64,000 nucleotides of DNA from an uncultured Planctomycetales bacterium (GTDB lineage: Bacteria; Omnitrophota; Gorgyraeia; Zapsychrales; Fredricksoniimonadaceae): the NCBI GenBank assembly GCA_964483785.1, contig CAZACW010000003.1, positions 20,559 to 84,558 of the forward strand, read 5' to 3'. A program made the position numbers and the translations under genes. Below are positions 21,504 through 47,337 of the stretch, piece after piece. Every line of letters starts with the position of its first letter. Within the stretch, counting starts at the first letter, position 1. The notes under the pieces were generated by a model. The model saw nothing but the letters and a program-made list of their open reading frames with translations. It ran no database searches and was not told the DNA's origin.

Positions 21504-22756
21504 GGGGCCTCGGCCAGGGGCAGTTTGATGCTGAAGGTCGTCCCTTCCTTCAAACGGCTTTTGACCTTGATTTTTCCATTATACAATTTGACGATTTCAT
21601 TGACCACGGTCAAGCCTAAGCCGCAGCCTTTGTCAATGTCCTTGGTGGTAAAAAACGGCTCGAAAATTTTGTCTAAATCAGCGGCCGTGATGCCGTGCCC
21701 GGTATCGGTGATGGCAATTTTGATAAACCCGTCTTCCGTCAGGGTGCGGATTTCGATGCAGCCGTTTTTGTCAATGGCATCAATGGCGTTTTTGATCAAA
21801 TTGCTGAAAACGCGCTCCAGGCCCCAGTCCGTTATTTCAGGGACATTGTGCGCGAAATGCTTGACGAGCTTGATGTTTTTGGCGGCCAGGTACGGATAAA
21901 GTTCCTTAAGGGCACCCTCGATGGTTTTATGGATATCGGCCTTGCGGGCGCTTTCAGGGGATTGGCGCGCGCAGGCCAGCAGGTTTTTGACGATATTGGC
22001 CATGCGTTTAAGGCCCATCTGCACCTCGGTCAAGTATTCTTTTAAGACCTCATCGTTTTGAGCGTGAGACATGCACAGATGATTGTAGCGCATCACCCCG
22101 TCTAAAGGATTGTTGAATTCATGGGCGATCCCTCCTGCCAATTTGCCGAGGGAGACCAGCCGCTCCTGCGATTCGATCTGCTTTTTCAATCCGCTGGTCT
22201 CCTCGCGGGCATGGCCCAATTGATGGGCCATCACGATGCGCTGATAATTAAGCGCAATTTGGTTCGACAAAAAATCCAACAGCTGGTGTTCCCGGTGGGT
22301 AAATGGTTTGGGAGGATTTTTGGCGTAAATGTGCACACTGCCCGTCAGCTTGTCCTTGATCATCAAGGGCGAAGCTATCGCGGTTTTGCTTCTATAGCCT
22401 TTGCCCGGGCCTAAGGTTTTAAGCAATTCCTCTTGATCGTTGTCTTTAAGGCCCACCGAGGCCTTAAGAAGCATCTGGTGGGTCTGGGGATCCAGCAGAA
22501 AAATGGCCCCGCGCCGGGCCTTGAAGACCGGCAAGGTGCTTTGTAAGGCGTCTTTGAAAAGATGCTGGGTGTCGATGGATTCTGAACACAGCACACAGAC
22601 CGCATTGATTTTTTCAAGAAGATTCGACAGCGGAGACGGCGCTTTGTGCTTTTTGAGGGGCATAATCCTGGCTGAGGCAGTCAATGTGTCTATCATATTA
22701 TCGTCAAATGAAAGGATCGTCAAACATCGAATGCATAAAAAAAGCAGACCTTTCAC
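21500..22756 (-). CDS. Cytoplasmic sensor histidine kinase with GAF domain (HisKA + HATPase_c). The GTG start at 22756 is doubtful. ATG at 22696 is more likely.
   Basis: H-box LAGGIAHEFNNPL. N-box and G-boxes NLIKNAIDA ... DTGHGI ... GLGLTVV. No TM segments. Overlaps the RR gene by 4 nt. Confidence 0.85.
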   Translation of the reverse strand: MKGLLFLCIRCLTILSFDDNMIDTLTASARIMPLKKHKAPSPLSNLLEKINAVCVLCSESIDTQHLFKDALQSTLPVFKARRGAIFLLDPQTHQMLLKASVGLKDNDQEELLKTLGPGKGYRSKTAIASPLMIKDKLTGSVHIYAKNPPKPFTHREHQLLDFLSNQIALNYQRIVMAHQLGHAREETSGLKKQIESQERLVSLGKLAGGIAHEFNNPLDGVMRYNHLCMSHAQNDEVLKEYLTEVQMGLKRMANIVKNLLACARQSPESARKADIHKTIEGALKELYPYLAAKNIKLVKHFAHNVPEITDWGLERVFSNLIKNAIDAIDKNGCIEIRTLTEDGFIKIAITDTGHGITAADLDKIFEPFFTTKDIDKGCGLGLTVVNEIVKLYNGKIKVKSRLKEGTTFSIKLPLAEAP

Positions 22757-22768
22757 AAGGACTGCTTT
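22737..22768 (-). terminator. Putative intrinsic terminator or attenuator between the sugar-transferase gene and the histidine-kinase gene
   Basis: Minus-strand RNA is AAAGCAG(U)CC-UUGUGAAA-GG(U)CUGCUUU followed by UUUUUUU. It ends at the GTG/ATG region of the kinase ORF. Confidence 0.35.
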
Positions 22769-22819
22769 GCATCACAGGTCTATAGGGTAAAATCAGGGGT
22801 TGTGTAGTGTATTAAAGGG

Positions 22820-23623
22820 TCACCGGGCGCCGAAGCCGGTCAAAATGACCCGGAATGTGCGCAAGATGATCCTGATATCGGTCAGGAAGCTGATGTTCTT
22901 GATGTAGAGGATATCGTATTTGACTTTTTTGCGCACATCCGCGATGGTCTCATCGTAGCGGTGGTGCACTTGGGCCAGGCCGGTGATGCCGGGTTTGACT
23001 CTCAGGCGTTTTTTGTAATCACCGATTTGGCCTTCCAATTGCTTGACAAATACCGGGCGCTCAGGCCTGGGGCCGATAACGCTCATCTCCCCTTTTAACA
23101 CATTGATAAATTGAGGGATCTCATCCAGACGGCTTTTGCGCAAAAATTGGCCGATGGGTGTGATTCTTTTGTCCTTGGCCTTGGCCCAAACAGGCCCTGA
23201 ATCTTTTTCCGCATCGATATTCATGGTGCGGAATTTATAGATTTCAAAATTTTTGCCGTCCTTGCCGGAGCGGATCTGGCTGTAAAAAATCGGACCTTTG
23301 GAGCTGAGCTTAATCAAAGCCGCAACCAACAGGCAGATAGGAGATAAAAGCACCAGACAAACGCAGGAAATGAGGATATCCATGATTCTTTTGGAGACAT
23401 GATAGGCCCTTCTTAAAAAAGCCACGATCATGGTCAAGACGCCGCTGCCGAAAAGCAGAAAGCTGGAAGGTTCAGGGGCCCGGGAATGGGGCTGGGCGAG
23501 CAAGGCATTGGCCTTATGCACGGCAACCGTGGCGGCCCAGGCATGGGCGTCCATGCCAAGCACAGCGATTAAGGCTGCTCCGAAACAAATAAAAGCCATG
23601 GTTTTAGAGGTCGATTTCATCAT
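22820..23623 (-). CDS. PglC/WbaP-C-terminal-like polyprenyl-phosphate sugar phosphotransferase with an about 80-aa N-terminal extension containing a signal-peptide-like helix and a PEP-CTERM-like motif
   Basis: Core KRIMDILISCVCLVLLSPICLLVAALIKLSSKGPIFYSQIRSGKDGKNFEIYKFRTM ... GPRPER ... PGITGLAQV are small sugar-transferase signatures. The extension reads MMKSTSKTMAFICFGAALIAVLGMDAHAWA-ATVAV ... RAPEPSSFLLFGSGVLTMIVAFLRRAYH, that is PEP, a hydrophobic stretch, then RR. No in-frame stop between the extension and the core. Confidence 0.8.
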   Translation of the reverse strand: MMKSTSKTMAFICFGAALIAVLGMDAHAWAATVAVHKANALLAQPHSRAPEPSSFLLFGSGVLTMIVAFLRRAYHVSKRIMDILISCVCLVLLSPICLLVAALIKLSSKGPIFYSQIRSGKDGKNFEIYKFRTMNIDAEKDSGPVWAKAKDKRITPIGQFLRKSRLDEIPQFINVLKGEMSVIGPRPERPVFVKQLEGQIGDYKKRLRVKPGITGLAQVHHRYDETIADVRKKVKYDILYIKNISFLTDIRIILRTFRVILTGFGAR

Positions 23624-23671
23624 TTTTGCTGTTTTTAGAGATTAAAAATTTGGCTTACATTAGGGTATAGC

Positions 23672-23688
23672 AGCAATTACCGTGCCAA
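23672..23688 (-). promoter_or_regulatory. Sigma-54 (-24/-12) promoter TTGGCACGGTAATTGCT upstream of the PEP-CTERM/sugar-transferase gene
   Basis: On the minus strand: TGGCAC-GGTAA-TTGCT. This is an exact match to TGGCAC-N5-TTGCW with correct 5-nt spacing. It lies about 50 nt upstream of the start codon at 23623, inside an AT-rich 240-nt gap. Confidence 0.65.
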
Positions 23689-23862
23689 ACCGCTAAAATC
23701 GCGCAAAATATTTAAATTTTTATAACTTGATTATTTCCAGTATGATAGAGAATAAATATAAAAATAAGATTAAAATCCCATAAAAAATACGTTCAAATAA
23801 GCAAAATAGAGGTATTTAAATGTATAAGTTTTTCAACACCCTATGTCTGATTTGACTTTATA

Positions 23863-24495
23863 TTAAGGTAGGTATTGCGATAATTTTGGACCTAACATGC
23901 TGGCAAATGCATCGATACGTTTTGAGGCCTCATTTTGACGCCCATCAATAATGTCAGCAGAAATCCTAATTAGAGCAGTACCTGTTCTCTTACCGGTCAA
24001 GGTATTATAGGCTGATAAGGTCTGCTGTTTCCAATAGCTGTGGGTGTACAAATTACCCACCTTAAACCAATAATAGACAATTTGCTGGTTTTGGTCATTA
24101 TCCAGCAAAAGCCAGTTGACCTTGATCTTGGGCCGAGAAGGGTTAATTATAATAGTATTCTTGCCCTTGTCAAGGATAGAAAATCCTGAATCCTTGTAAA
24201 AAATATCCGGCGGATTGGCGGCTTTGGGATTGCTTTGGGAATAGGCAATATATAAATAAATCCGCCCATGTCTGGCAGAATCATAACGCCTCAGAAAGGC
24301 GTTCTTGGTTTCCAAAATAGACACGTCCACCCTGCCCAAAGGCAGTTCCTGCGCAGTCCAGGGGCCGATGGTGGCGGGGAATTTTTCAACGCTGATGGAG
24401 TCCGGGTGATTAAAAGAAGTGGAATAATATTCCCATGAAATGAACATGGTGAAGATGGCCAGGGTCAGAATAAAAAAATAGTAGCGTGAGGGCAT
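23863..24495 (-). CDS. EpsI-family exosortase-associated protein
   Basis: 210 aa, N-terminal TM, IGPWTAQELP motif, periplasmic domain. It sits immediately downstream of the exosortase gene. Confidence 0.55.
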   Translation of the reverse strand: MPSRYYFFILTLAIFTMFISWEYYSTSFNHPDSISVEKFPATIGPWTAQELPLGRVDVSILETKNAFLRRYDSARHGRIYLYIAYSQSNPKAANPPDIFYKDSGFSILDKGKNTIIINPSRPKIKVNWLLLDNDQNQQIVYYWFKVGNLYTHSYWKQQTLSAYNTLTGKRTGTALIRISADIIDGRQNEASKRIDAFASMLGPKLSQYLP

Positions 24496-24496
24496 T

Positions 24497-25375
24497 TTAG
24501 GTCAATAGTTTTTTAACGGTAAAAAGCATCAAAAAAGCAAAAATAAAGACCATGTACCCTGATAATCCATGGAGAAAGCCCTGGGTGTATTGCGTTCCCC
24601 AGATCTCCCCTACCGCAGCCAAGAACACGATGCGCAGGGCATTGGTGACCACGGCAATGGGGATGGCCGAGGCAAAAAGCAGGATTTTTTTCGACAATCT
24701 CAATTTCAAGCGGTAGGCAAAGATACTGCCTAAGGCAGCCAGGGAGATCAGGGACCTTAAGCCGCCGCAGGAATCCTCCACTTCCACGTAACTATGGGAC
24801 ATCATGATCAAACTGCTCTGCTGCAGCGCGGGAAGGCCCATGAGATTGAGGACCAAGGTGGCCAGGTGCGCGGCGATGATTTTCAATTTAAAACACACAA
24901 AAGCGACCAGGATGATGGGCATGGGCACCATGAAGGCCAGAAACAATACCGGAAAACGGATTTCCTTGAGCGTCCTTTCCCCGTAAAAATACAGGATAAG
25001 GCCAGCGAGGATGATGATCATGGCGAAACCTGAGGTGAAATACACATGCAGAATGGCGCTGGCCCAATAGAGGATGACGCCTGCGCTAAATAGTTCAAAT
25101 CCCCAATGGGAGGGTTTAACCGGGATTTTTTTAAGGACAGCCCTTTTTTTCCAAATCAAAAATGCGGAGATGACGGGGATGAGAATGCCGTGGCTGTAAT
25201 AGGAATTGTCCGCGAACCAGCGGTCCCACATCCACAGCATGGTCGGGAAAAACGCGGCCAGCAAAAAGACAAATACCAGCAATTCCCGTTGATGGTCCCT
25301 GATCAGGGCCTTGGTCTGGAGCATATCATGGGTGCCGCGCCTTTGTCCAGGCGGCCTGCTGTTGGGCCGTGACAA
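24497..25375 (-). CDS. Exosortase (EpsH/Xrt family transpeptidase)
   Basis: 292 aa polytopic membrane protein. Conserved Cys in VEDSCGGLRSLISLAALG and Asn/Arg in VVTNALRIVFLA match the exosortase catalytic signature. Genomic context is EpsI, GT2, deacetylase. Confidence 0.75.
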   Translation of the reverse strand: MSRPNSRPPGQRRGTHDMLQTKALIRDHQRELLVFVFLLAAFFPTMLWMWDRWFADNSYYSHGILIPVISAFLIWKKRAVLKKIPVKPSHWGFELFSAGVILYWASAILHVYFTSGFAMIIILAGLILYFYGERTLKEIRFPVLFLAFMVPMPIILVAFVCFKLKIIAAHLATLVLNLMGLPALQQSSLIMMSHSYVEVEDSCGGLRSLISLAALGSIFAYRLKLRLSKKILLFASAIPIAVVTNALRIVFLAAVGEIWGTQYTQGFLHGLSGYMVFIFAFLMLFTVKKLLT

Positions 25376-33459: not shown

Positions 33460-35148
33460 TTAGATGTCTTCGGTGACGCGCAGCACCTCGCTGGGGCTGG
33501 TCAGGCCCGCGGCCACCTTTTCCCAGCCGTGCTGGCGCAGGGTCTTCATCCCGTCGGACACGGCCCGGTGCTTGATTTCCCGGCTGGTGGCGCGCGATGT
33601 AATGAGGCCGCGGATTTTTTCATTCAGGAGTAGAAATTCGCAAATGGCCTGGCGGCCGCTGTAGCCGGTCATGCGGCAGGCCTTGCACCCGGTGGCCTCG
33701 TAGATCAGCGGGTCAACGATGGTGTTGTTCAGGTCGAATTTATATTTGATATTGTCCGTCAGGGTGGTGGCTTTTTTGCACGCGGGGCACAATAGGCGCA
33801 CCAGGCGCTGGGCCAGGAAACACTCGACGGAAGAGGCGATGAGGTAGGGCTCGATGCCGATGTCGATCAGGCGCGTGACCCCCGAGGCGGCGTCATTGGT
33901 GTGCAAGGTGGAAAAGACCAGATGGCCGGTCAAGGACATTTGGATGGAAATCTGGGCGGTCTCAAAATCGCGCACCTCCCCCACCATGATCACGTCCGGA
34001 TCATTGCGCAGGATGGTGCGCAGGGCCGCGGCAAAGGTCAAGCCTATGAGAGGATTGGCCTGCACCTGGATGGCCCCCTGCAGCTGGTATTCAATGGGGT
34101 CTTCCACGGTGATGATCTTGGTGTCCTTGGAGTTGATCGCCGCCAGGCAGGAATAAAGCGTCGTGGTCTTGCCGCTGCCCGTGGGGCCGGTCAAAAAAAT
34201 AATGCCGTGCGGCTTGTTGATCAGGACATTCAGGGTCTTGATCTCATCGCCGGTAATGCCCAATTCTTCAAAATCATAGAGCCTAAAGGCGTTTAACAGG
34301 CGGATCACACAACTTTCCCCGTAGGTGGTCGGCAAAAAGGACACGCGCAAATCCATTTCCGCGCCTTCCACCTTCACCTTGAAACGGCCGTCCTGCGGCA
34401 GTCTTTTCTCGGCGATGTTGAGATTCGAAAGGATCTTGATGCGGGAGATCAGGGCGTCCTTGAAGTAGCGGATGTTTTCCGGGACCTGGGCGTCATATAA
34501 TTCCCCGTCGATGCGGTAGCGGATGCGCAGTTCATGGCCGAAGGGCTCGATATGGATGTCCGTGGCCTGGTCCCGGTGGGCATGGAAGAGGATCTGGTTT
34601 AAAAACTGGCTGATGGAGGCTTCCGATGATGTCCCGTCGATGGTTTCCGTGGCCGGGGCCTCGGCGCTCATCATCTCCTTGTCGGACATCATGCGCTCGA
34701 TGGTCTCGGCGCCAAGCCCATAATGCTCGCGGATGGCTTCGTTGATGTCTTTTTCTTCGGCCAAAACCGGCTGGATGGGTCCGCGGGCCACCATGGCCAG
34801 ATCATCCAGGACATTGAGCTTCCAGGGATTGGTCATGGCCACGGTCAAGAGGCCGTTTTCGAATTTGACGGGAAAGACCTTGTAATGGTTGACTGCCTTG
34901 GCCGGAAGCCGGCTGATGGCCTCGGCCGAAGCTTCGACGGATTTCAAGGATACAAAACCGATGTCGAATTTTTCGGCCAGGAGCGGGAACACCGTTTTTT
35001 CATCGGTGATCAGGCCCATGTGGACCAGGGTCAGGCCTAAGGGCTGGCCGGTTTTTTTTTGTTCTTCCAGGGCTTGCTGCAGCTGTTGGGCGGTGATGAT
35101 CCCTTTTTGGACCAGCAATTCTCCCAATAATTTGTTGCGGTTTGACAT
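33460..35148 (-). CDS. gspE: T2SS/T4P secretion ATPase GspE (N-terminal MshEN/T2SSE_N domain)
   Basis: Walker A GPTGSGKTTTLY, Asp box, His box, C-terminal tetracysteine (CPACKK ... CKAC), N-terminal LGELLVQKGIITAQQLQQAL. Confidence 0.9.
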   Translation of the reverse strand: MSNRNKLLGELLVQKGIITAQQLQQALEEQKKTGQPLGLTLVHMGLITDEKTVFPLLAEKFDIGFVSLKSVEASAEAISRLPAKAVNHYKVFPVKFENGLLTVAMTNPWKLNVLDDLAMVARGPIQPVLAEEKDINEAIREHYGLGAETIERMMSDKEMMSAEAPATETIDGTSSEASISQFLNQILFHAHRDQATDIHIEPFGHELRIRYRIDGELYDAQVPENIRYFKDALISRIKILSNLNIAEKRLPQDGRFKVKVEGAEMDLRVSFLPTTYGESCVIRLLNAFRLYDFEELGITGDEIKTLNVLINKPHGIIFLTGPTGSGKTTTLYSCLAAINSKDTKIITVEDPIEYQLQGAIQVQANPLIGLTFAAALRTILRNDPDVIMVGEVRDFETAQISIQMSLTGHLVFSTLHTNDAASGVTRLIDIGIEPYLIASSVECFLAQRLVRLLCPACKKATTLTDNIKYKFDLNNTIVDPLIYEATGCKACRMTGYSGRQAICEFLLLNEKIRGLITSRATSREIKHRAVSDGMKTLRQHGWEKVAAGLTSPSEVLRVTEDI

Positions 35149-37237: not shown

Positions 37238-37314
37238 ATCTTTTTTTTAATTATACTCTTTAAATTTTATTTCAAAAGGAAAAGATAAACTTTTTGGGAG
37301 GCTTGCACCCTCTT

Positions 37315-37348
37315 TTAAGGAAGCAGGGGTGGGGCCCTGCTTCCTTAA
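37315..37348 (-). terminator. Strong hairpin: 14-bp perfect stem (TTAAGGAAGCAGGG / CCCTGCTTCCTTAA) with a 6-nt loop, 13 nt downstream of the 1110-aa gene stop. It has no U-tract.
   Basis: Read directly. Probably a transcript 3' end or stabiliser between the adhesin-like gene and the AT-rich gspC promoter region. Confidence 0.4.
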
Positions 37349-37360
37349 GGTGTTCAGCAA

Positions 37361-38820
37361 TTACTTCACTACAATTTTATTGCCGTTGGACATCGTTGTC
37401 CATCCGGAGCTGTCCGTGGCCTTGGCGCTGATGCTATAGGTCCCTGGACGGACATTGTACCAGACCATCTTATAAGAAGGGCCGCTGTAGGCAGATCCTA
37501 AATACAGCCATCCATTGGCATAATAATCCACCTTGGCAATATAGCCGCCATGGGCTGTTACGCTTGAGCTCAAGGACAAATTGCTGTAGGCCCTGACCGT
37601 GGCATTATTGGCCGGACTCAGCATGGAGACGCTGGGCGCCATGTGCGCATTCACAGTGATGTTCACTGCGGGTGCGAAGAACACATTGCCGTTGGTATCC
37701 GTGGCCTTGGCCGTAATGCTGTAGGTGCCGGCCTGGGCTGAGTTCCAATTCACGTTATAGGGGCTGCTGGTGGCCTCGCCCAAATAAATGGAACCCGCAT
37801 AATAATCGACCCTGGCTGGCGCGCTGTCCGTCACATTGGCCGTTAAGATGATGTTGGACGGTATGGTGAAGGAAGCGTTGTTAAGCGCAGCTGTAATGAC
37901 GATGGTCGGCGCGACAACAGGCGCTGTTACCGTAATGCTGACAGCGGCTGAAGTAACGCTGACTCCGCCATTGTCCGTGGCGATAGCCGTTAAGCTGTAG
38001 CTGCCGGCTGTTGGATTCTGCCATGACAAGGCAAAGGGGCTGGCTGTGGCCGTGCCCAGCAGGCTTGACCCGCTGTAAAAAGCCACCTTGGAGATGATGC
38101 CGTTATTTTCAGAAGCTGAAGCGGCCAGGTTGATCGCAGAACCTGCCGTAAAATGACTTCCTCCGGCCGGGCTGGTGATGGAGACCTGCGGCAAAGACGG
38201 GACCACAGGCACCACGGGCGCAGCTTTGACCGTGACGGTCACCGGCACAGATGAAGCGGTCATGCCGTTGGCGTCCTGGGTCTGGGCCGTGAAGGTATAG
38301 GGCCCGGCCTGGATATTAGTATTGATGAAGTTTAAGGAATTACCGTTGGCTGAATTCAACAGAACGCCTGCCCCGTTAAAAAGGGAGACCTTGGCAATGC
38401 TTCCGTTGGCCTCTGAAGCCGCGGCTGTGACCGTGACATTATCGCCGGCTGTAAAGCTGCTGCCATCGGCCGGGCTGGTGATGGCCACGGTCGGCAAAGA
38501 AGGAAGCAGCGGCGGTGCGGTCACTGTCACCGTCACCGGCGCGGATGTTGCCAAAATGCCGTTGGCATCCGTGGCCGTAGCGGTCAAGGCATAACTGCCC
38601 GCAGCGATATTGTTCATGACCATGCTATAAGAAGAAAGCCCGCTGGATCCAAGCAGGGCTGTTCCATTGTAGATGGAGATATTGGTAATGGTCCCATTGG
38701 CTTCGGAAGCGGAAGCTGTGATGGTCAGATTGGTCCCGGCGGTGATGGAAGAGCCGCTGACCGGACTGGTGATGGCCACGGTCGGTGTTGCCAGGACACT
38801 GCCGCTGCAGATCCCGTTGG
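37361..38820 (-). repeat. Tandem Ig-like domain repeats (5 copies, about 290 nt each) inside paralog A
   Basis: Periodic protein repeats. Antisense plus-strand ORFs 38322-38594 and 38673-38891 echo each other (MLPLASEAAAVTVTL / MVPLASEAEAVMVRL). Confidence 0.7.
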
Positions 38821-40693
38821 AACACATGACGCTTAAGCATTCTGCATTAAAAAAGCAGGTGCCGCCGTTGGCGACCAGGGAACCGTGCTGATAGGCGCCG
38901 ATGTCCCATGAAGTCCCGCGGGCATTGTTATTGTAATCATTGGATGTTCCGTTTAACGTGATGACCCCGGCCGTACCGATCAAGGGGCTGTTGGCCGTGG
39001 GATAAAACTGGTCTGCCAGGCCGGTGCCGGTATATACAAAGGAACTGTTGAGATTGAAATTGCCGCTGACGCCGGCATTGGCCGGATTGCTGCAGATATC
39101 ATGACTGCCGGCGCAATCCTGGGGATCATAAACATGATAGACCAGATTATTATTTTCAACCACGTGGGCGCAGCTGCCCGCGTCATTTTCCCAGAACCTG
39201 GTTTGCTGGGCATCGCCGTTGGTGTAATCCGGCGCGCCGATGACTAAGCTGTTGTTGACATTCAGGGCCACATTGCCGCCGCCGCACCAGGATGTGGTCA
39301 GCTCAATATTGGTGCCGCCGTTGGAATACAGCGTTGAGTTGGACACATTAAAGGAAGTGGTGGTATTGGGCACGGCAAAGACCAGGCCGTCGCCGGCTGC
39401 GCGGCAGAAATCATGGCCGTTGACCGGCGGGCAATTGCCGTAAGAATCGCAGACTGCCGTAAAACTCTGGCCCTGGAAGAAATTGCAGTCATTGATGATC
39501 TGGGAATTTTCAATGTTCACCGCGCCGTAGTTCAGCTTCAATTGCTGGCTTTCATTGCCTTCGGCCCTGACACGGTAGGCATTGAAGGTCCCGGTGCCGT
39601 TGCAATGCAGATTATCGATGCCTCCCTTGGTGTTATAGGAGACATTGGTATTGCTCATGTTCACCAAATTGCAGATTCCGCTGCCGGCTTCCATGCCCCA
39701 GCCGTCGGCCAGGATAGAGCCGTTGCTGCTGCTGTCATCAGCGCAATCGTGATAATTTAAGGTGTCAAAGGGATTGCTCGAATGCAGCGGATACACCGAA
39801 CCGCAGCCGTTAAAGACAATGGTCTCGCCATTGACCGTGGTGGTGCCGGCCAAGCTCATGGTCCCGCTGTTGCTGATATTCTGGCCCAGGCCCACCCCGC
39901 CGGCCCCGTTGCCGTTGATGATATTATTGGTTTCCGTAAAATTGCTTAAATTTCCGGTTGTGACCCCCCAATAGGACATGCCGTGGATCCAGTTGTTTTG
40001 CAAGTTGATATTGGAGCCGGTCAAGCTGACACCGGTAAGGCCGTAATTGCCGTAAGGTGAGGAAAATCCATTGTTGGGCTTATGGCAGGCGTTGGGAAAG
40101 CCGTTGATCGAGCCTGCAGGATTGGCGCCGTTGGTAACGCAGGATGAATGCTGGGTGATTTCCAGGTTATTGATGACCGTGTTAGCGCTGTTATTGTCAT
40201 TCAGGACCTGGACCACTTGTTCACGTCCCCACAGTTGCGGCCTGTGCGCGCCAATGCCGATCACTGAAGCATTGGACGGTATATTGGCCATGGTGCAGTT
40301 TTCAGGCACAGGTGCGTAACAATTACTGCCGTTGGTGGGGGTGATCACTCCGGTCACGTCCAGACCAATGGGATACTGGGCCTGGGTGCCGGGATTCATA
40401 TCGCTGTCGCCCACTATATAAAGGGTGTCCCCGTCTGCCATGACGCCTGGACGGTCGCAGGTGTTCCAGCCGGTATTACCGCAGCCGGCCCCCAGCACAT
40501 ACATGGGATTGGACAAGGCGCAGGGTTGATTCAAGCCGCTTCCAGGATAAACTGCATTGGTGGTTCCAGTGCATTGGACAGGTGTTCCGCCGCCGTCTCT
40601 TACGTACCAGGTTGCTGCGGAGGCGTTCACTGCACCCATAGCCCAGAAGCCCAAGACCATTGTGATGCTGATTGCCAAATTTGTTTTTTTCAT
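37361..40693 (-). CDS. Large secreted protein: Cys-rich N-terminal module + right-handed parallel beta-helix + 5 tandem Ig-like repeats (paralog A)
   Basis: Signal peptide. N-terminus ATWYVRDGGGTPVQCTGTTNAVYPGSG ... PMYVLGAGCGNTG. Repeated NNxI/NG beta-helix rungs. Five roughly 97-aa repeats of the form ITSPxxGSxFTAGxN ... SENNGxIxKVxFY ... PYxxxW ... GxYxLTAxATDxxG. No PEP-CTERM or LPXTG at the C-terminus. Confidence 0.8.
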   Translation of the reverse strand: MKKTNLAISITMVLGFWAMGAVNASAATWYVRDGGGTPVQCTGTTNAVYPGSGLNQPCALSNPMYVLGAGCGNTGWNTCDRPGVMADGDTLYIVGDSDMNPGTQAQYPIGLDVTGVITPTNGSNCYAPVPENCTMANIPSNASVIGIGAHRPQLWGREQVVQVLNDNNSANTVINNLEITQHSSCVTNGANPAGSINGFPNACHKPNNGFSSPYGNYGLTGVSLTGSNINLQNNWIHGMSYWGVTTGNLSNFTETNNIINGNGAGGVGLGQNISNSGTMSLAGTTTVNGETIVFNGCGSVYPLHSSNPFDTLNYHDCADDSSSNGSILADGWGMEAGSGICNLVNMSNTNVSYNTKGGIDNLHCNGTGTFNAYRVRAEGNESQQLKLNYGAVNIENSQIINDCNFFQGQSFTAVCDSYGNCPPVNGHDFCRAAGDGLVFAVPNTTTSFNVSNSTLYSNGGTNIELTTSWCGGGNVALNVNNSLVIGAPDYTNGDAQQTRFWENDAGSCAHVVENNNLVYHVYDPQDCAGSHDICSNPANAGVSGNFNLNSSFVYTGTGLADQFYPTANSPLIGTAGVITLNGTSNDYNNNARGTSWDIGAYQHGSLVANGGTCFFNAECLSVMCSNGICSGSVLATPTVAITSPVSGSSITAGTNLTITASASEANGTITNISIYNGTALLGSSGLSSYSMVMNNIAAGSYALTATATDANGILATSAPVTVTVTAPPLLPSLPTVAITSPADGSSFTAGDNVTVTAAASEANGSIAKVSLFNGAGVLLNSANGNSLNFINTNIQAGPYTFTAQTQDANGMTASSVPVTVTVKAAPVVPVVPSLPQVSITSPAGGSHFTAGSAINLAASASENNGIISKVAFYSGSSLLGTATASPFALSWQNPTAGSYSLTAIATDNGGVSVTSAAVSITVTAPVVAPTIVITAALNNASFTIPSNIILTANVTDSAPARVDYYAGSIYLGEATSSPYNVNWNSAQAGTYSITAKATDTNGNVFFAPAVNITVNAHMAPSVSMLSPANNATVRAYSNLSLSSSVTAHGGYIAKVDYYANGWLYLGSAYSGPSYKMVWYNVRPGTYSISAKATDSSGWTTMSNGNKIVVK

Positions 40694-40727
40694 AACCCAC
40701 CTCGCCGTTGGGGCATTACATTAAATT

Positions 40728-40767
40728 AAAAAACCTATTCCTCGTTTGCACAAAGAATAGGTTTTTT
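40728..40767. terminator. Bidirectional rho-independent terminator AAAAAACCTATTC-(14 nt loop)-GAATAGGTTTTTT, located 33 nt upstream of the paralog-A start codon
   Basis: 9-bp stem flanked by A6 and T6. On the minus strand it follows the 688-aa gene by about 300 nt and precedes the RBS GAGGTGG of the 1110-aa gene. Confidence 0.6.
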
Positions 40768-40876
40768 AATGGTGAATATGGCAACTGGCTACCTGTCCGG
40801 GCTACGGCCCGGGGTAAGGCCCTATAGCTTTGTGCCCCACCCTTTCGGGTGGTTTACCTTTTACATATCTAAGCGA

Positions 40877-40905
40877 AGCATAACACGTAATTCTTGTGTT
40901 GTCAA
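40877..40905 (-). promoter_or_regulatory. Sigma-70-like promoter TTGACA-17nt-TATGCT on the minus strand, about 175 nt upstream of the paralog-A start
   Basis: Minus-strand read aaacTTGACAacacaagaattacgtgtTATGCTtcg. Perfect -35, 17-nt spacer, 4/6 -10. Confidence 0.3.
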
Positions 40906-41062
40906 GTTTACTAAAAATCAAATATAATTTGATATTAGGTATATTATTTGCCTAATAATCAAAGTATATTTTTGCGGTCAAGATTAAAAAGATCGATGTC
41001 AAATTCGACAGAAACAGGTTTTTATCCTAAAAAATTATTGTAAACCTTAGATAGATATTGAA

Positions 41063-43129
41063 TTAAGATTGTGGTGAAGAGGATTTGGCAGGAGGCAGTT
41101 TTTGGTCGGAAACGGTTATCAGCACAGGTTTTGAGACAGTTGTCCTGCCTTCCGTGTCCGTGGCTGTGGCGATAATGGAATAGGTCCCTAAAGCGACTTT
41201 TTCAGCCATATATTCATAGGGAAGCCGGCTGACCGTTCCCAAAAGATTCATTCCATTGTAATAAAAATTGACATGGGCAATGGTGCCGTTGATCTCTGAA
41301 GCAGCGGCTATAATGGCCACGTTCGACCCGGCCGGGAACATCGTATCTTTAACCGGCCTGGTGATAACGATTTCAGGATTATATTTAATCTGGGGCAAGG
41401 CCGCAGCCGGCTTGCCGCTGGTGATATTCTTGGACAAAGCGTTGAACGGATTGTTTTTAAGGCCAAGCAGGCTGTTGGCTGATGTTCCTTGATAATAGGT
41501 ATCTGCCCTGCCCCCTGCCTGGCCCATGGGTATTTTATCGGCAAAATCAGGTTTTTTGCCGCATGCGTTTAAAAATCCGCTGCAGCCGTGATTATTGTTT
41601 CTGGTGTGGTACACCGTATTGCCCAGCTGGTCCCATTTCAGGTTTCCACAGCTTCCTGCGCCATCGCCGTTGCTTCCCGCATTGTAAATATAGCTGGTCA
41701 AGGCATTGCCGCCGGCGCTGTTGAAGGAAGTATCATCGATCCAGGCATAGCCGCCCAGCACCACATTATTTTTCAAAGATATGGAGGTGGAACCGTCACA
41801 GCCGCTGCCGTTAATATCCGATGATTCCAAGCTTATATTCCCATTGCTTAAAATCGTGTTATTTTCCAAAGAGGTATGGCTGTGATTGGTCACGTTAAAG
41901 ACCACTGCGTCTCCCAGGGCCCGGCAAATGTCCCCGCCTTTAAAACCCGGCGAAGAGACCGCAGCGCCCAGCCACCAGCCGCAATCACCGATTACAACAC
42001 TGTTGGTCATGCGGGAGTTTAAGGCATTCATCTTCACCTGATTGCCGGCATTGCCCTCAAAGAGCATCTTGTCAATGAAGATGTTCCCGTCCCCATTGCC
42101 GTGCAGGGTGTCTAAGCCGTCCTGGGTGTTAAAACTGATGGAGCCTGGGCCCTGGATGCTCCAGTTGCCCGCTCCTCCGTGTCCCACATTGCCGAAGGCC
42201 AGGCCGTCCCCGTAACCGCTTTGGTTTTGGCCGAAACAATCCGTGAGATTGGAAGGGCTGTCCATCACCAGATCATTATTTAAGGGATAGGACTCGACAC
42301 AGCCGTTGTATTCGATCACCGGCTGATCAAAGGTCAAGGTGCCGGAAATCACGGCATTGGTCCCGGTCGTAAATCCGCCATATCCGTTGCCGATGATCCT
42401 CAAGCGCGTAAAGACAGCACTGCCTAAATTGTCCGTGTTGATGCCGTAGCGCCCCATCCCATGCACATAGACATCAATGATATGGACATCATCCCCTCCT
42501 ATATTTAATCCATCCAGCGCCCAGGGTCCGTAGGGATAAGGGCCGTCGTAATTACAGCCTTTGTCCGGGGAATTATAAGCGCAGCTGGCGTGGTCGGTGA
42601 TGTCCAGATTTTGAAGCACAAGATGGTTGTTGTTGGCATTGAGGATTTGCCATAATCTTTGCGTGCCCCATAATTGCGGCTTGTGCTGGCCCGTGCCGAT
42701 GATGGAGCTGGGCTGTAAAGCGCTAAGGCCGGCAGGCAGATTGCCCAGGGTGCAGTCATAGGGGTAGGACTCGGCACATCCCGGCGTCGCGTTATTCTCC
42801 CCGTCATCATATCCGATTTCATATTGGGCCTGGCCTCCGTTTGCCGGATCATCGCCGCTGATGTACAAGGTGTCCCCCGCATGCATCACACCGGCATTGG
42901 CGCAATTGTTTCCGGCATTGCCGCAGCCCCAGCCTAAGGCATAGCGCGGATGATTAAAGGCGCAGTCAACAGCACTGCCGGAGCCGGGATAGGCTGCATC
43001 CGCTGTGCCGGAGCATTCTTCCGGCGTCCCCCCATCCGGGCGGACATAATAGGCCGCGGCCAGGGCAAGGGTCTGGGAAAACACGGCCAGACCGAGAAAC
43101 AGGATGAATATGAAAATGGGTTTGTTCAT
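41063..43129 (-). CDS. Secreted beta-helix protein with one C-terminal Ig-like domain (paralog B, divergent)
   Basis: Signal peptide. N-terminus AAYYVRPDGGTPEECSGTADAAYPGSG ... RYALGWGCGNAG has the same Cys-rich module. Beta-helix rungs and one Ig-like repeat before a low-complexity tail. Confidence 0.8.
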   Translation of the reverse strand: MNKPIFIFILFLGLAVFSQTLALAAAYYVRPDGGTPEECSGTADAAYPGSGSAVDCAFNHPRYALGWGCGNAGNNCANAGVMHAGDTLYISGDDPANGGQAQYEIGYDDGENNATPGCAESYPYDCTLGNLPAGLSALQPSSIIGTGQHKPQLWGTQRLWQILNANNNHLVLQNLDITDHASCAYNSPDKGCNYDGPYPYGPWALDGLNIGGDDVHIIDVYVHGMGRYGINTDNLGSAVFTRLRIIGNGYGGFTTGTNAVISGTLTFDQPVIEYNGCVESYPLNNDLVMDSPSNLTDCFGQNQSGYGDGLAFGNVGHGGAGNWSIQGPGSISFNTQDGLDTLHGNGDGNIFIDKMLFEGNAGNQVKMNALNSRMTNSVVIGDCGWWLGAAVSSPGFKGGDICRALGDAVVFNVTNHSHTSLENNTILSNGNISLESSDINGSGCDGSTSISLKNNVVLGGYAWIDDTSFNSAGGNALTSYIYNAGSNGDGAGSCGNLKWDQLGNTVYHTRNNNHGCSGFLNACGKKPDFADKIPMGQAGGRADTYYQGTSANSLLGLKNNPFNALSKNITSGKPAAALPQIKYNPEIVITRPVKDTMFPAGSNVAIIAAASEINGTIAHVNFYYNGMNLLGTVSRLPYEYMAEKVALGTYSIIATATDTEGRTTVSKPVLITVSDQKLPPAKSSSPQS

Positions 43130-43141
43130 GATTTGGAGAAT

Positions 43142-46100
43142 TTAATTGACCGAAGAATTCGTCACGGTATTGGAAGAGGTCAGGACTCCGTCGGCTTGGT
43201 CTGTCTGTGCGGCATCATCCGCAGCCACAACCACGGGTGCGGCTGCAACGCTCGGCCCAACAACAGGCGGCGCAGGAGTATTGGTGGCTGGCAGCGGCGG
43301 CGGAGTAAGGTTGCTTGCCACATTAATGCTGACCGGTGTTGAGGTGGAAGACCAACCGTAACTGTCCGTGGCCTTGGCCGTTAAGGTGTAATTGCCGGGC
43401 TGGACATTGTTCCAGGTCACGGTATAAGGGCTGTTATAGGCTGTTCCTAAATACAGCCAGCCATTGCTGTAGAAATCAACCTTGGTGATACTGCCTCCTG
43501 TGACCGCGGCATTGGCAGTCACAGGAATATTGGCGAATGAGCCAAAGGAGGCGTTATTGGCCGGGGCCGCGATGCTGATGGTGGGGGCTTTATGGGCGCT
43601 GACCGTGACGGTCACAGGCGATGCATAAAACACATTGCCGTTGCTGTCCACTGCCTTGGCCGTAAGATTATAGCTTCCCGGCTGGGCGCTGTTCCAATTG
43701 ACCTTGTAGGGAGGCCGGTTGGCTTCCCCTAAATAGAGCGATCCCGCATAATAATCCACCCTGTAAATGATGGCCCCTTGATCGGAAACATCGGATTTCA
43801 AGACGATATTGGCAGGGAGCGTAAAAGAAGCATTGCTGCCGGGTGATGTCAGGCTGATGGAGGGCGCATTAACAGCAGCTTGGCTCGGCGGCGCGCTGAC
43901 CGGAGCATTGACGGTAATGCTTATAGGCGCTGAGGTCACGGTTTGATTGTTGGCATCCGTGGCCACTGCGGTAATGGTGTAAGTACCTGCAGGCACATTG
44001 GTCCAGATGAAACTATAGGGGCTGTTGGCATCTGTACCCAAGAGATTATTGCCGTTAAAAAACGCGACCTGGGTGATGCTCCCGTTGTTTTCAGAAGCGG
44101 CAGCATTTAAGGTGATATTATTCCCTGCCGTAAAGGCGGCATTGTTGGACGGAGAACTTATACTGACTACCGGCGGTGAACTCGGCACGGATACGATTAT
44201 GTTGACAGCGCCGGAGGTTGAGGACCAGCCATAACTGTCCGTGGCCTTGGCCGTCAGAATGTAATTGCCGGGCTGGACATTGTTCCAGGTCACGGTATAA
44301 GGGCTGTTTTCTGCGGAACCTATATATAAGGACCCGCTGTAAAAATCAACCTTGGTGATGTTTCCGCCCGAAGATGAGGCGCTGGCTGTCAGCGTAATGT
44401 TCGCGGGCGTATTAAACGATACGCCGGCAGAGGGCGATGTCAGGGAAACTGCAGGCGCTGCATGGGCGCTGACCGTGATATTGATTGGCGTGGAATAAAA
44501 AACCGCCCCATTGCTGTCCGTGGCCTTGGCTGTGACGCTGTAATTGCCGGCCTGCGCGCTGTTCCAGGCCACGGAATAAGGGCTGAAGGTCGACTCCCCT
44601 AAAAACACCGGGCCCGCGTTATAATCGACCCTGTACACCTGGGCGCTGTCTGTCACCGTGGCGTTAAAGGTAATGGCCGCAGGCACGGTAAAGGAAGCAT
44701 TGTTTCCCGGAGAGCTGATGCTGATATTCGGGGCGGCATTGTTCGTTGGGATGTTTTGGGCGGTGACTGTCAAAGCCACGGGTGCCGAGGTCGTTGTGGC
44801 CCCATTGGCATCTGTGGCCACGGCTGTGATGGCATAGGTTCCCGCAGCCACATTATTCCAAGTATAGCTGTAGGGGCTATTGCTAAGTGCAGCCAGCAGA
44901 TTTGTCCCGTTATAATAAGAGACCTGGGTGATGGTGCCGTTGCTCTCCGAGGCGGTTGAGGTGAAGGTGATATTGGAGCCTGAAGCAAAGGTGCTGTTAT
45001 TCGGGGGTGTGGCGATCATCACAACCGGCGCAGCCTGCAGCGCCGGCGCTGTCACTATGATCGTCACCGGCGCCGAGGTCGCGGTGGCGCCGTTGGCATC
45101 TGTGGCCACGGCCGTCAATGCGTCTGTGCCCGGCGGCAGATTGACGGCGATCCATTGATAAGGTGCTGCCAAGGAAGTCCCTAAAAGGTCCGTGCCGTTA
45201 TAGAAGGCCACCTGGGTAATACTGCCGTTGTTTTCCGAGGCCGTGGCTGTAATGGTGACGCTGGCTGTGCTTAAGACGCTGCTGCCGTCGGCCGGAGCCG
45301 TGATGCTGACTGCCGGCTGTCCAGGTGCCGGGGCCGGCGGGTTCTGGATGGGCGGCGGGCTATTTTGGCTTACCGGATTGCTTGGCAGCGTTGTCTGCGG
45401 ATTCACGCATACGGCATTGGAGCAATCATTGTTGGTACATTCCGCGTTGAAAAAGCAGGTGCCGCCGTCAGCCACGGTTGATCCGTATTGATAGGACCCA
45501 ATGGCCCAGGCCGGACTGCGGGGGTTATTGTTGTAATCACTGGACGTGCCGCTTAGGACCAGGCTGCTGTTGCCTGCGCCGATCAAGGGAGAATTGGCCG
45601 CCGGATAAAATTGGTCAGCCAGGCCGACATTGGTATACTCATGGGAACTGTTTAAGGCGAAGTTTCCAGCCACGCCGGCATTTGCCGGATTATTGCAGAT
45701 ATCATGGCTGCCTGCGCAGTCCTGGGGATCATTCACCTGATAGACCAGATTATTGTTCTCCACCACATTGGCGCAGGAGCCGGCATCATTTTCCCAAAAC
45801 CTGGTCTGCTGGGAAAAGCTGCTGGTATAATCCGGCGCTCCCACAATTAAATTGTTGTTGACGTTGACAGTGACCTTGCCGCCGCTGCACCAGGACGTTG
45901 TCAGTTCAATGTTGGTGCCGCCGTTGGAATAAAACGTCGAGTTGGACACATTAAAGGCCGCGGTATTGTTGGGGATGGCAAAGACCAGTCCGTCGCCGGC
46001 AGCCCGGCAAAAATCATAGCCGTTGATGGGCGGGCAATTGCCGTAAGAATCGCAGGAGGTGGTAAAGGGCTGGCCCGCGAAAAAATTGCAGTTATTGATG

Positions 46101-47299
46101 ATTTGGGAATTTTCGATATTAACGGCGGCGTAATTGAGCTTCATCTGCTGGCTTTCATTGCCTTCGGCCCTGACGCGGTAGGCATTGAAGCTCCCGGTGC
46201 CGTTGCAGTGCAGATTGTCCACCCCTCCCTTGGTATTATAAGCAATGATGGAATTGCTCATGGTGATATTGTTGCAGATGCCGGTGCCGGCTTCCATGCC
46301 CCAGCCGTCGGCTAAGATGCCTCCGTTGCTGCTGCTGTCATCGGCGCAATGGTGGTAGTTTAAAGCATCAAAAGGATTGCTGGAATGCAAAGGATAAACC
46401 GAGCCGCATCCGTTAAAGACAATGGTGTCTCCGTTGACCGTGGTGATGCCGCCTAAGGACATGGTCCCGGAATTGCTGATGTTTTGGCCCAGGCCCACCC
46501 CGCCTCCGCCGTTGCCGTTGATGATATTGTTGGTTTCCGTAAAATTGCTTAAATTTCCGGTGGTGATGCCCCAGAAAGACATGCCGTGGACCCAATTGTT
46601 TTCCAGGGTAATGTTGGCGCCGGTGAGGCTTATGCCTGCCAATCCATAATCACCATAGGGGGAATTAAAGCCATTGTTCGGTTTATGGCAGGCATTGGGA
46701 AATCCGCCGGTCTGTTCGGCCGGGTCAGCGCCGTTGGTCACACAGGATGAATGCTGGGTGATTTCCAGGTTATTGATGATGGTATTGGAACTGTTATTGT
46801 CATTGAGGACCTGTACTACTTCTTCCCTGCCCCATAATTGCGGCCTTTGCGAGCCGATCCCGATGACGGAAGAATTGGACGGCATATTGGCCATGGTGCA
46901 GTCTTCGGGCGCCTGGGCCACGCAATGGCGGCCGTCCACAGGTGTAATTACGCCGCTGGTGTCAAGGCCGATGGGATATTGGGCCTGGGCGCCGGGCACC
47001 AGGTCGCTGTCTCCCACAATATAAAGCGTGTCTCCGCTGGACATGAGACTGGGCCTGTCGCAGGCATCAAAGCCGGTATTGCCGCATCCGGCGCCCAGCA
47101 CGTACATGGGATTTGAAAAGGCGCAGGGTTGATTGGTGCCGTTGCCGGGATAGACCGCGTTGGCCGTGCCTGTGCATTGCGTGGGATTGCCCCCGCCGTC
47201 ACGTACATACCAGTTGGCGGCACAGGCAGGCGCTGACCAAAGCACGGCCCAGCCAAAACAGCTTCCTAATATTATGGGGGAGGAAAAAATGAACCGCAT
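43142..47299 (-). CDS. Large secreted protein: Cys-rich module + beta-helix + 7 tandem Ig-like repeats + Pro-rich tail (paralog C). Likely start MRFIFSSPIILG at 47299. The ORF track begins at 47317 inside the palindrome.
   Basis: About 90% identical to paralog A over the sampled beta-helix core (NNW[IV]HGMS[YF]WG ... GWGMEAG[ST]GICN). Seven roughly 100-aa Ig-like repeats. 12-nt gap to paralog B. Confidence 0.8.
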   Translation of the reverse strand: MRFIFSSPIILGSCFGWAVLWSAPACAANWYVRDGGGNPTQCTGTANAVYPGNGTNQPCAFSNPMYVLGAGCGNTGFDACDRPSLMSSGDTLYIVGDSDLVPGAQAQYPIGLDTSGVITPVDGRHCVAQAPEDCTMANMPSNSSVIGIGSQRPQLWGREEVVQVLNDNNSSNTIINNLEITQHSSCVTNGADPAEQTGGFPNACHKPNNGFNSPYGDYGLAGISLTGANITLENNWVHGMSFWGITTGNLSNFTETNNIINGNGGGGVGLGQNISNSGTMSLGGITTVNGDTIVFNGCGSVYPLHSSNPFDALNYHHCADDSSSNGGILADGWGMEAGTGICNNITMSNSIIAYNTKGGVDNLHCNGTGSFNAYRVRAEGNESQQMKLNYAAVNIENSQIINNCNFFAGQPFTTSCDSYGNCPPINGYDFCRAAGDGLVFAIPNNTAAFNVSNSTFYSNGGTNIELTTSWCSGGKVTVNVNNNLIVGAPDYTSSFSQQTRFWENDAGSCANVVENNNLVYQVNDPQDCAGSHDICNNPANAGVAGNFALNSSHEYTNVGLADQFYPAANSPLIGAGNSSLVLSGTSSDYNNNPRSPAWAIGSYQYGSTVADGGTCFFNAECTNNDCSNAVCVNPQTTLPSNPVSQNSPPPIQNPPAPAPGQPAVSITAPADGSSVLSTASVTITATASENNGSITQVAFYNGTDLLGTSLAAPYQWIAVNLPPGTDALTAVATDANGATATSAPVTIIVTAPALQAAPVVMIATPPNNSTFASGSNITFTSTASESNGTITQVSYYNGTNLLAALSNSPYSYTWNNVAAGTYAITAVATDANGATTTSAPVALTVTAQNIPTNNAAPNISISSPGNNASFTVPAAITFNATVTDSAQVYRVDYNAGPVFLGESTFSPYSVAWNSAQAGNYSVTAKATDSNGAVFYSTPINITVSAHAAPAVSLTSPSAGVSFNTPANITLTASASSSGGNITKVDFYSGSLYIGSAENSPYTVTWNNVQPGNYILTAKATDSYGWSSTSGAVNIIVSVPSSPPVVSISSPSNNAAFTAGNNITLNAAASENNGSITQVAFFNGNNLLGTDANSPYSFIWTNVPAGTYTITAVATDANNQTVTSAPISITVNAPVSAPPSQAAVNAPSISLTSPGSNASFTLPANIVLKSDVSDQGAIIYRVDYYAGSLYLGEANRPPYKVNWNSAQPGSYNLTAKAVDSNGNVFYASPVTVTVSAHKAPTISIAAPANNASFGSFANIPVTANAAVTGGSITKVDFYSNGWLYLGTAYNSPYTVTWNNVQPGNYTLTAKATDSYGWSSTSTPVSINVASNLTPPPLPATNTPAPPVVGPSVAAAPVVVAADDAAQTDQADGVLTSSNTVTNSSVN
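43309..45397 (-). repeat. Tandem Ig-like domain repeats (7 copies) inside paralog C
   Basis: Periodicity seen in the protein. Antisense ORFs 44025-44234, 44928-45158 and 45228-45491 repeat the same motif (LPLFSEAAAFKV / VPLLSEAVEVKV / MFSEAVAVMVTL). Confidence 0.7.
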
Positions 47300-47310
47300 A
47301 TTTCTTACAA

Positions 47311-47337
47311 CCATCACAACCCCGGGGGTTGTGATGG
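47311..47337. repeat. Palindrome copy 3 (CCATCACAACCCCGGGGGTTGTGATGG), 12 nt upstream of the paralog-C start codon
   Basis: Read directly. Extends to A ... T at 47310/47338. Confidence 0.8.

Follow-up and report, generated by a model that had tools for sequence, protein, structure and literature searches.

In the minus strand of the window (the whole 64-kb stretch of DNA analysed here), a structured leader lies between a 688-aa gene, which ends at 41063, and a 1110-aa gene, whose ATG begins at 40693. This locus raises the question of whether the leader attenuates transcription of the 1110-aa gene, which signal it may sense and in which direction that signal would act. The initial annotation, made from the letters alone, had proposed an attenuator, naming a riboswitch first and a T-box or protein-mediated antitermination besides. 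The elements of the locus are the following:

40877..40905, minus strand: sigma-70-type promoter, with the -35 box TTGACA at 40905-40900, a 17-nt spacer and the -10 box TATGCT at 40882-40877
40776..40868, minus strand: c-di-GMP-I (GEMM-I) riboswitch aptamer, from the RF03167 match and the contact residues
40837..40852, minus strand: P2 hairpin of the aptamer, CCACCC-GAAA-GGGUGG (CCACCCGAAAGGGTGG), the first GC hairpin of the initial annotation
40783..40829, minus strand: P3 helix of the aptamer, from the structure line of the Rfam match and from folds
40821..40835, minus strand: 5' half of the predicted antiterminator, GCACAAAG-CU-AUAGG, from the MFE of partial transcripts
40748..40761, minus strand: 3' half of the predicted antiterminator, CCUAU-U-CUUUGUGC, that is, the loop-proximal terminator 5' arm and loop
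40726..40769, minus strand: intrinsic terminator (expression platform), with ~20 pairs, a 4-nt loop and a U-tract at 40733-40728
40691..40703, minus strand: SD GAGGUGG (40703-40697) and ATG (40693-40691) of the 1110-aa gene
37361..40693, minus strand: gene of the 1110-aa secreted protein, the predicted regulated gene, from Pfam and its translation

The layout first proposed for this leader was recovered in all its elements. The promoter TTGACA-17-TATGCT is present where it had been placed, with 10 of 12 consensus matches and a TG extension in the promoter scan; the predicted transcription start at ~40870 lies 2 nt upstream of P1 and gives a leader of ~177 nt, close to the ~175 nt originally stated. 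Both GC hairpins are found, at 40852-40837 and 40812-40797, as are the U-tract terminator and the SD followed by the ATG. The position of the terminator stands, and its distance to the ATG at 40693, given as 33 nt, measures 34 nt. That the leader is structured is borne out by folding: 145 nt of it reach -61 kcal/mol (z = -6.35), a stability attained by none of 200 shuffles. Promoter-like and terminator-like sites are no more numerous in the region than in shuffles (3 vs 1.9 expected and 2 vs 1.4, respectively).

Several other features accompany this arrangement. In the full-length MFE fold, the linker UUCACC (40775-40770) pairs with the SD region GGUGGG (40703-40697) on the minus strand; because the terminator hairpin juxtaposes this linker and the SD, a secondary translational effect is possible. 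The linker UUCACC is missing from the closest relative, L117. An inverted repeat, ATCAAAT-TAT-ATTTGAT, is found in AT-rich surroundings at window positions 40917-40933, 12 nt ahead of the -35 box; a regulator may bind there, or the repeat may have arisen by chance. On the plus strand, a strong promoter-like site at 40899-40928 (TTGTCA-18-TATAAT, 11/12 matches) overlaps the riboswitch promoter and is directed antisense into the 688-aa gene.

The identity of the leader emerged from an Rfam scan, a check that had been suggested together with the attenuator. The scan returned one match, an aptamer of the c-di-GMP-I clan (CL00126) that fills the space between promoter and terminator, in keeping with the riboswitch named first: RF03167 (c-di-GMP-I-GGC), at 40776-40867 on the minus strand, with 60.8 bits against a gathering score of 59, an E-value of 7e-12 and the complete model aligned (1-80 of 80). 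It is the sole Rfam match in the 64-kb window, even at E<=1, and at the same cut-off no further aptamer copies occur there. A T-box or protein-mediated antitermination is unneeded to account for the leader, no other Rfam family being found in the window at E<=1. A second CL00126 family also exceeds its own gathering score at the aptamer site and is hidden by clan competition; most likely, this is RF01051, the gathering score of which is 35.

The match is folded into the three helices of the class. P1 is formed by AUAUG (40868-40864) and CAUAU (40780-40776). P2 is capped by a GAAA tetraloop of the GNRA type (40846-40843), and its base is closed by the pairs G21-C46 (40857/40832) and U22-A45 (40856/40833). 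P3 ends in a distal hairpin, CCGGGC-CGUA-GCCCGG (CCGGGCCGTAGCCCGG, 40812-40797), which is the second GC hairpin of the initial annotation and an insertion relative to the RF03167 model; the tetraloop-receptor region of P3 is divergent and has a low posterior probability in the model alignment. The leader is thus read as a GEMM-I aptamer followed by a terminator, and the aptamer class is near certain.

Which ligand the aptamer would bind depends on a handful of nucleotides. In the Vc2 riboswitch, c-di-GMP is contacted by G20, A47 and C92, and C44 and G83 form an interhelical pair (PMC4744006, PMC5888326). The equivalents of all three contacts are canonical in the window (G20 at 40858, A47 at 40831, C92 at 40781), and the interhelical partners are found at two bulge positions, C44 at 40834 and G83 at 40789. 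The U22-A45 pair is a compensatory swap for the consensus pair C22-G45.

The top-scoring model would nevertheless suggest a different reading, namely that the leader genuinely belongs to the c-di-GMP-I-GGC variant and responds to another ligand than c-di-GMP. This variant was reportedly defined by Weinberg et al. in 2017; the letters GGC presumably denote G20/G47/C92, judging from the family name and the model consensus; the reviews consulted give no definition. RF03167 is indeed the best-scoring clan member, and several related leaders carry the same label. The first J2/3 nucleotide, however, separates the two consensuses (GACGCAAAgC in RF01051 vs GACGCGAAgC in RF03167), and the window reads GGCACAAAGC, with an RF01051-like A at 40831 in place of the G at position 47 that marks the variant. 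The RF03167 threshold is cleared by just 1.8 bits, and orthologous leaders sharing this core receive the RF01051 label with 58-72 bits. In 13 related loci, each with the CACAAAGC core, either RF01051 (43-72 bits) or RF03167 (59.5-64 bits) is assigned. Membership in a variant with another ligand is therefore very improbable. A47, together with G20, C92, C44, G83 and the flipping labels, indicates that the GGC label reflects a near-tie between models, and we conclude that the aptamer is a canonical predicted c-di-GMP sensor, the label being an artefact of that tie. A preference for c-AMP-GMP is not suggested by the contacts either: c-AMP-GMP (GEMM-Ib) variants carry A at position 20, where the window has G (40858).

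The expression platform follows downstream of the aptamer. The terminator (40769-40726) lies wholly beyond P1 and the rest of the aptamer, the last nucleotide of which is 40776. Over 13 bp, the 5' arm and loop of the terminator (CCUAUUCUUUGUGC) can pair with the aptamer core (GCACAAAG..AUAGG), so that the leader has, as expected of an expression platform, a terminator between aptamer and ATG and a 13-bp helix that is mutually exclusive with it. The 5' half of this antiterminator spans J2/3 with C44 and A47, the P2 base pairs and the P3 5' strand. Since C44, A47, two P2 closing pairs and the P3 5' strand are consumed, the antiterminator and a bound ligand cannot coexist. The helix also ties up the loop-proximal half of the terminator arm, the site at which the hairpin has to nucleate. 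When the transcript is truncated at 40748 or 40740, its MFE fold is the antiterminator (-42.8 and -44.2 kcal/mol, respectively), compared to -37.7 kcal/mol for the aptamer-only fold. The duplex itself has -18.2 kcal/mol, a value that 9 of 2000 arm shuffles and 15 of 2000 aptamer shuffles attain, and the aptamer core is the only significant alternative partner of the terminator arm. As the full-length MFE fold strongly favours the terminator (-61 kcal/mol), read-through would depend on kinetics.

Relatives of the leader were collected from species-representative genomes by means of a DNA pattern requiring the U22-A45 subtype, which yielded more than 119 sites. Many of them, and likewise the closest leaders, come from MAGs of Candidatus Omnitrophota and of 'uncultured Planctomycetales'. 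About ten relatives share both the aptamer and the expression platform AACCUAUUCUUUGUG...GAAUAGGUUUUUU. In six MAG loci (L016, L073, L077, L047, L102 and L113), the leader precedes orthologs of the 1110-aa gene, the proteins of which begin with a signal peptide followed by ATYYVRxDGGTAxQCTG; these orthologs were found via the DNA pattern, exact peptide words of the N-terminal 605 aa having matched no genome contigs. In three other relatives (L119, L106 and L103), the downstream gene is prepilin-type. A GT and a GH123 gene are located upstream of the riboswitch in L047 and L113, as they are in the window, and GH123 is also found upstream of it in L117 and L073.

The initial annotation had held that the leader should be conserved and that homologous leaders should be inspected for covariation. 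The promoter-aptamer-terminator unit is kept upstream of the orthologs. Of 11 family leaders, 10 have an exact TTGACA followed 16-18 nt downstream by a -10 box, L106 with its weaker TTGCTT being the exception, and the -10 box ends 15-39 nt upstream of the conserved AAAGG in all 11; the retention of the promoter lends phylogenetic support to transcription beginning ahead of the aptamer. The family shows no conservation of the linker that joins aptamer and terminator. When seven leaders are aligned over the aptamer and the lower terminator stem, 94.4% of the positions expected to pair do so, compared to 30-48% when the strands are slid. Five pairs, mainly in P2, change on both sides, a covariation score reached by none of 500 shuffles. 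The P2 stem is 100% paired in the seven leaders, with both-sided changes at 3 of its 6 pairs; the P3 pairs are also 100% paired, and these and the P2 base pairs are invariant. The lower terminator stem (AACCUAUUC/GAAUAGGUU) is 100% paired as well.

All 13 pairs of the antiterminator hold in the seven leaders (100% paired vs 28-58% when slid). As 12 of the 13 pairs are invariant and the family was chosen in part by that very motif, covariation support for the antiterminator is thin: the one informative pair, at the end of the helix, is AU in three, GC in two and GU in one. In L103, ACAGG:CCUGU replaces the AUAGG:CCUAU of the family, and in L106 the same aptamer strand is paired over 9 bp in a shifted register. 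In two Bacillaceae leaders, the terminator arm complements their own, different P3 strand. CUUUGUG is invariant in the family, whereas terminator loops, 3' partners and linkers diverge. The UGUG part of the antiterminator is lost in the second copy of L106. Three further leaders (L091, L097 and L068) have CUAAAGG-type aptamers (AAAGG) and yet keep CCUAU in the terminator, which makes for a poor antiterminator fit. Such poor fits in distant cousins indicate that the CCUAUUC...GAAUAGG terminator may in part be an inherited lineage motif. Among 74 terminator-bearing leaders with the same aptamer subtype, the antiterminator is significant only in the subfamily of the window and in a few others.

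Two structural peculiarities were observed among the relatives. In L106 (4839-4929 and 5619-5709) and L091 (2968-3055 and 1833-1920), both from Omnitrophota/'Planctomycetales', c-di-GMP-I aptamers occur as two separate copies 0.8-1.1 kb apart, each with its own terminator, and the first aptamer of L106 precedes the prepilin-type gene; this pairing suggests serial riboswitch control. In L047 and L102, an insertion of ~55 nt with two extra hairpins is located inside the P3 5' strand, where it splits the antiterminator AUAGG and lowers the RF01051 score to 43-45 bits.

The 1110-aa protein consists of a signal peptide, an N-terminal right-handed beta-helix of ~600 aa and five Big_7 Ig repeats; a PEP-CTERM tail is not found on it. 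The AF2 model of the N-terminal domain is a right-handed beta-helix (pLDDT 88.8, pTM 0.90). Its nearest neighbours among solved structures are GH136 lacto-N-biosidases, the pectate lyase Pel9A, alginate epimerases and lyases, a Klebsiella capsule lyase, RbmB (a matrix lyase of Vibrio), phage tailspikes and the adhesin PfbA. As the TM-scores are low (0.2-0.4), this similarity speaks to the fold only. Three paralogs stand in tandem, of which this protein is the last; it is 60% identical to the 1391-aa protein and 34% identical to the 688-aa one. The genes of these two (window 41063-47317, minus strand) are located directly upstream in the same orientation without a riboswitch; only the 1110-aa gene is preceded by one. 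The 1391-aa gene follows GH123 after a gap of 56 nt.

In a search of 5.8 billion proteins, the closest homologs of the beta-helix domain, with 57-62% identity, were located in phage tail modules or on short phage-like contigs (L001 to L005); none of these phage-type homologs has the leader beside it. The homolog in L002 (5001-7133) is accompanied by Dit_like, Phage_TAC_15, E217 gp31 and gp41 neighbours. This distribution suggests that a depolymerase or receptor-binding domain has been exchanged between the bacterial lineage and its phages. An exact look-up of the 1110-aa protein retrieved no identical record, and that of its 164-aa neighbour retrieved only a 5.8-kb Logan contig ending short of the leader.

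The 1110-aa gene is embedded in a 50-kb co-directional cluster of the exosortase EPS/T2SS-like type. The EPS genes comprise many glycosyltransferases, Wzy, a deacetylase, the exosortase EpsH, EpsI and a priming sugar transferase; regulators are represented by a histidine kinase paired with a sigma-54 regulator; a type II secretion/type IV pilus-like set includes a secretin, an MshEN-domain ATPase, a platform protein, pseudopilins and PilMNO. Downstream of the stop codon of the 1110-aa gene, a GC-rich hairpin without a U-tract (AAGGAAGCAGGG...CCCCUGCUUCCUU, window ~37314-37350, minus strand) is found, and a TTGAAA-15-TATAAT-like sequence lies between this hairpin and the 164-aa gene. Co-transcription of the 1110-aa gene with the secretin and ATPase genes is possible.

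Other parts of the window were noted as well. At 20118-25375 (minus strand), EpsH, EpsI (DUF3485), a GAF histidine kinase and a sigma-54 response regulator form a set that resembles a PEP-CTERM/exosortase regulatory module. At 1-11889 (minus strand), at least 3963 codons stay open without interruption; they belong to a giant gene that runs off the left edge and, being cut there, was missing from the program-made list of open reading frames. The T2SSE-type ATPase (33460-35148, minus strand) carries its MshEN domain at the N-terminus. MshEN is a known type of c-di-GMP-binding domain, and the cluster may receive c-di-GMP input at the RNA and the protein level alike. Genes with GGDEF or EAL domains are absent from the 64-kb window.

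These elements could operate in the following manner: the dedicated sigma-70-type promoter would start the transcript ~2 nt before P1, and the first ~93 nt would fold as the GEMM-I aptamer with P1, the GAAA-capped P2 and P3. The terminator 5' arm and loop, once transcribed, could pair either with the 3' arm, forming the terminator, or with the aptamer core, forming the 13-bp antiterminator, which would destroy the ligand pocket. At low c-di-GMP, the antiterminator would form as the RNA emerges, permitting read-through into the 1110-aa beta-helix/Ig-repeat gene and possibly reaching the secretin and MshEN-ATPase genes beyond it. With c-di-GMP bound, the aptamer would be locked and the terminator arm free, and transcription would stop at 40733-40728. 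On this basis, the leader very probably is a transcriptional c-di-GMP class-I riboswitch, with ligand binding as predicted from the contact nucleotides and termination as its output. We infer with less assurance that the switch is probably of the OFF type.

The same riboswitch could act in the opposite sense, with the ligand preventing the terminator and c-di-GMP inducing the secreted protein and the secretion machinery. Some of the biology would fit such an ON switch: c-di-GMP usually induces biofilm and adhesion functions, the protein has Ig-like repeats and a beta-helix fold, the latter also seen in the adhesin PfbA, and an EPS/exosortase cluster with an MshEN-domain ATPase adjoins the gene. 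MshEN ATPases are c-di-GMP-activated in studied systems, and an OFF switch beside one is unintuitive in its direction; moreover, the distant cousins have a weak form of the antiterminator on which the OFF model rests. The architecture of the leader, in contrast, offers little to an ON design. The terminator lies outside the aptamer, and the formed aptamer therefore cannot exclude it sterically. The terminator arm has a single significant alternative pairing, which excludes ligand binding, and the linker is unconserved, so that no ligand-dependent antiterminator can be placed there. An overlap of P1 with the terminator and a conserved linker pairing were sought in the leader, and neither was found. 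We therefore consider the ON direction quite unlikely. The initial annotation had also offered a simpler explanation, in which the hairpin is a constitutive terminator of the upstream 1391/688 operon and a weak promoter overlapping the terminator (TTGTGC-17-TTTAAT) drives the 1110-aa gene; the aptamer-like sequence would then be a decayed relic. The hairpin is indeed very stable. One part of this explanation held: after the 688-aa gene, the strand has no terminator-like site besides this hairpin, none lying between that gene and the aptamer. For this reason, transcripts reading through from upstream would run into the riboswitch-gated terminator as well. As the main explanation, this reading did not fare as well, since the weak promoter fails the criteria of the promoter scan, the aptamer is intact, spanning the complete model and retaining every contact nucleotide, and promoter, aptamer and terminator are kept together in loci with other upstream genes; a purely constitutive role is hardly credible.

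The c-di-GMP-I riboswitch class has been well known since 2008. With its type example, Vc2 of Vibrio cholerae (RF01051), the window leader shares the three-helix aptamer, the GNRA tetraloop in P2, the core strings AAAGG-AAACC and CACAAAGC, the nucleotides G20/A47/C92 and C44-G83 (PMC4744006, PMC5888326, PMC7266159) and the position in a 5' leader before a surface or secretion gene. It differs by U22-A45 in place of the consensus C22-G45 and by a P3 with the extra distal hairpin and a divergent tetraloop-receptor region; its host, to judge by the closest leaders, appears to be an uncultured Omnitrophota-like bacterium. Cd1 of Clostridioides difficile is a terminator-type c-di-GMP-I OFF switch. 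Like Cd1 and Bc1 of Bacillus thuringiensis (PMC11218506), the leader uses a rho-independent terminator as its platform, with premature termination as the predicted outcome; Bc1 has two terminators (PMC11218506), whereas the window leader has one. In contrast to both Firmicutes switches, the candidate antiterminator is made from J2/3 and the P3 5' strand, not from the P1 3' strand; an antiterminator built from the ligand-binding core is unusual. The RF03167 variant, as the best-scoring model, is nearer to the window in overall sequence and P3 length of its seed, but differs at the distinguishing J2/3 position (A in the window, not G). The c-AMP-GMP (GEMM-Ib) riboswitches of Geobacter share the aptamer scaffold and also control extracellular or surface functions (PMC7266159), whereas the window has G at position 20. 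Our literature search found no paper on c-di-GMP riboswitches in Omnitrophota, the only two matching papers listed concerning ComFB receptor proteins.

The leader adds a member and a gene association to a known class, not a new principle, and a standard Rfam scan detects it. It also calls for some caution with family labels: the top 'GGC' label of Rfam can be a near-tie, as it is here, where the binding-site nucleotides are canonical. What had been an anonymous leader now carries a specific, testable claim, namely c-di-GMP control of a secreted beta-helix/Ig-repeat protein via termination, in an Omnitrophota-like lineage whose signalling is little known. How plausible the OFF direction is would depend on the protein: if it degrades matrix polysaccharide, repression by c-di-GMP would be sensible, whereas the OFF direction would be surprising for an adhesin. 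More speculatively, and in our view doubtful as it stands, the leaders may represent a lineage-specific, Omnitrophota-like OFF subfamily that releases a secreted, polysaccharide-degrading beta-helix enzyme at low c-di-GMP, possibly together with a type II-like secretion system. If both the OFF direction and the degradative activity were true, the 1110-aa protein would be a functional counterpart of the Vibrio matrix lyase RbmB or of a phage depolymerase, and the leader would constitute an RNA-level switch for matrix dispersal or host attack inside an EPS cluster.
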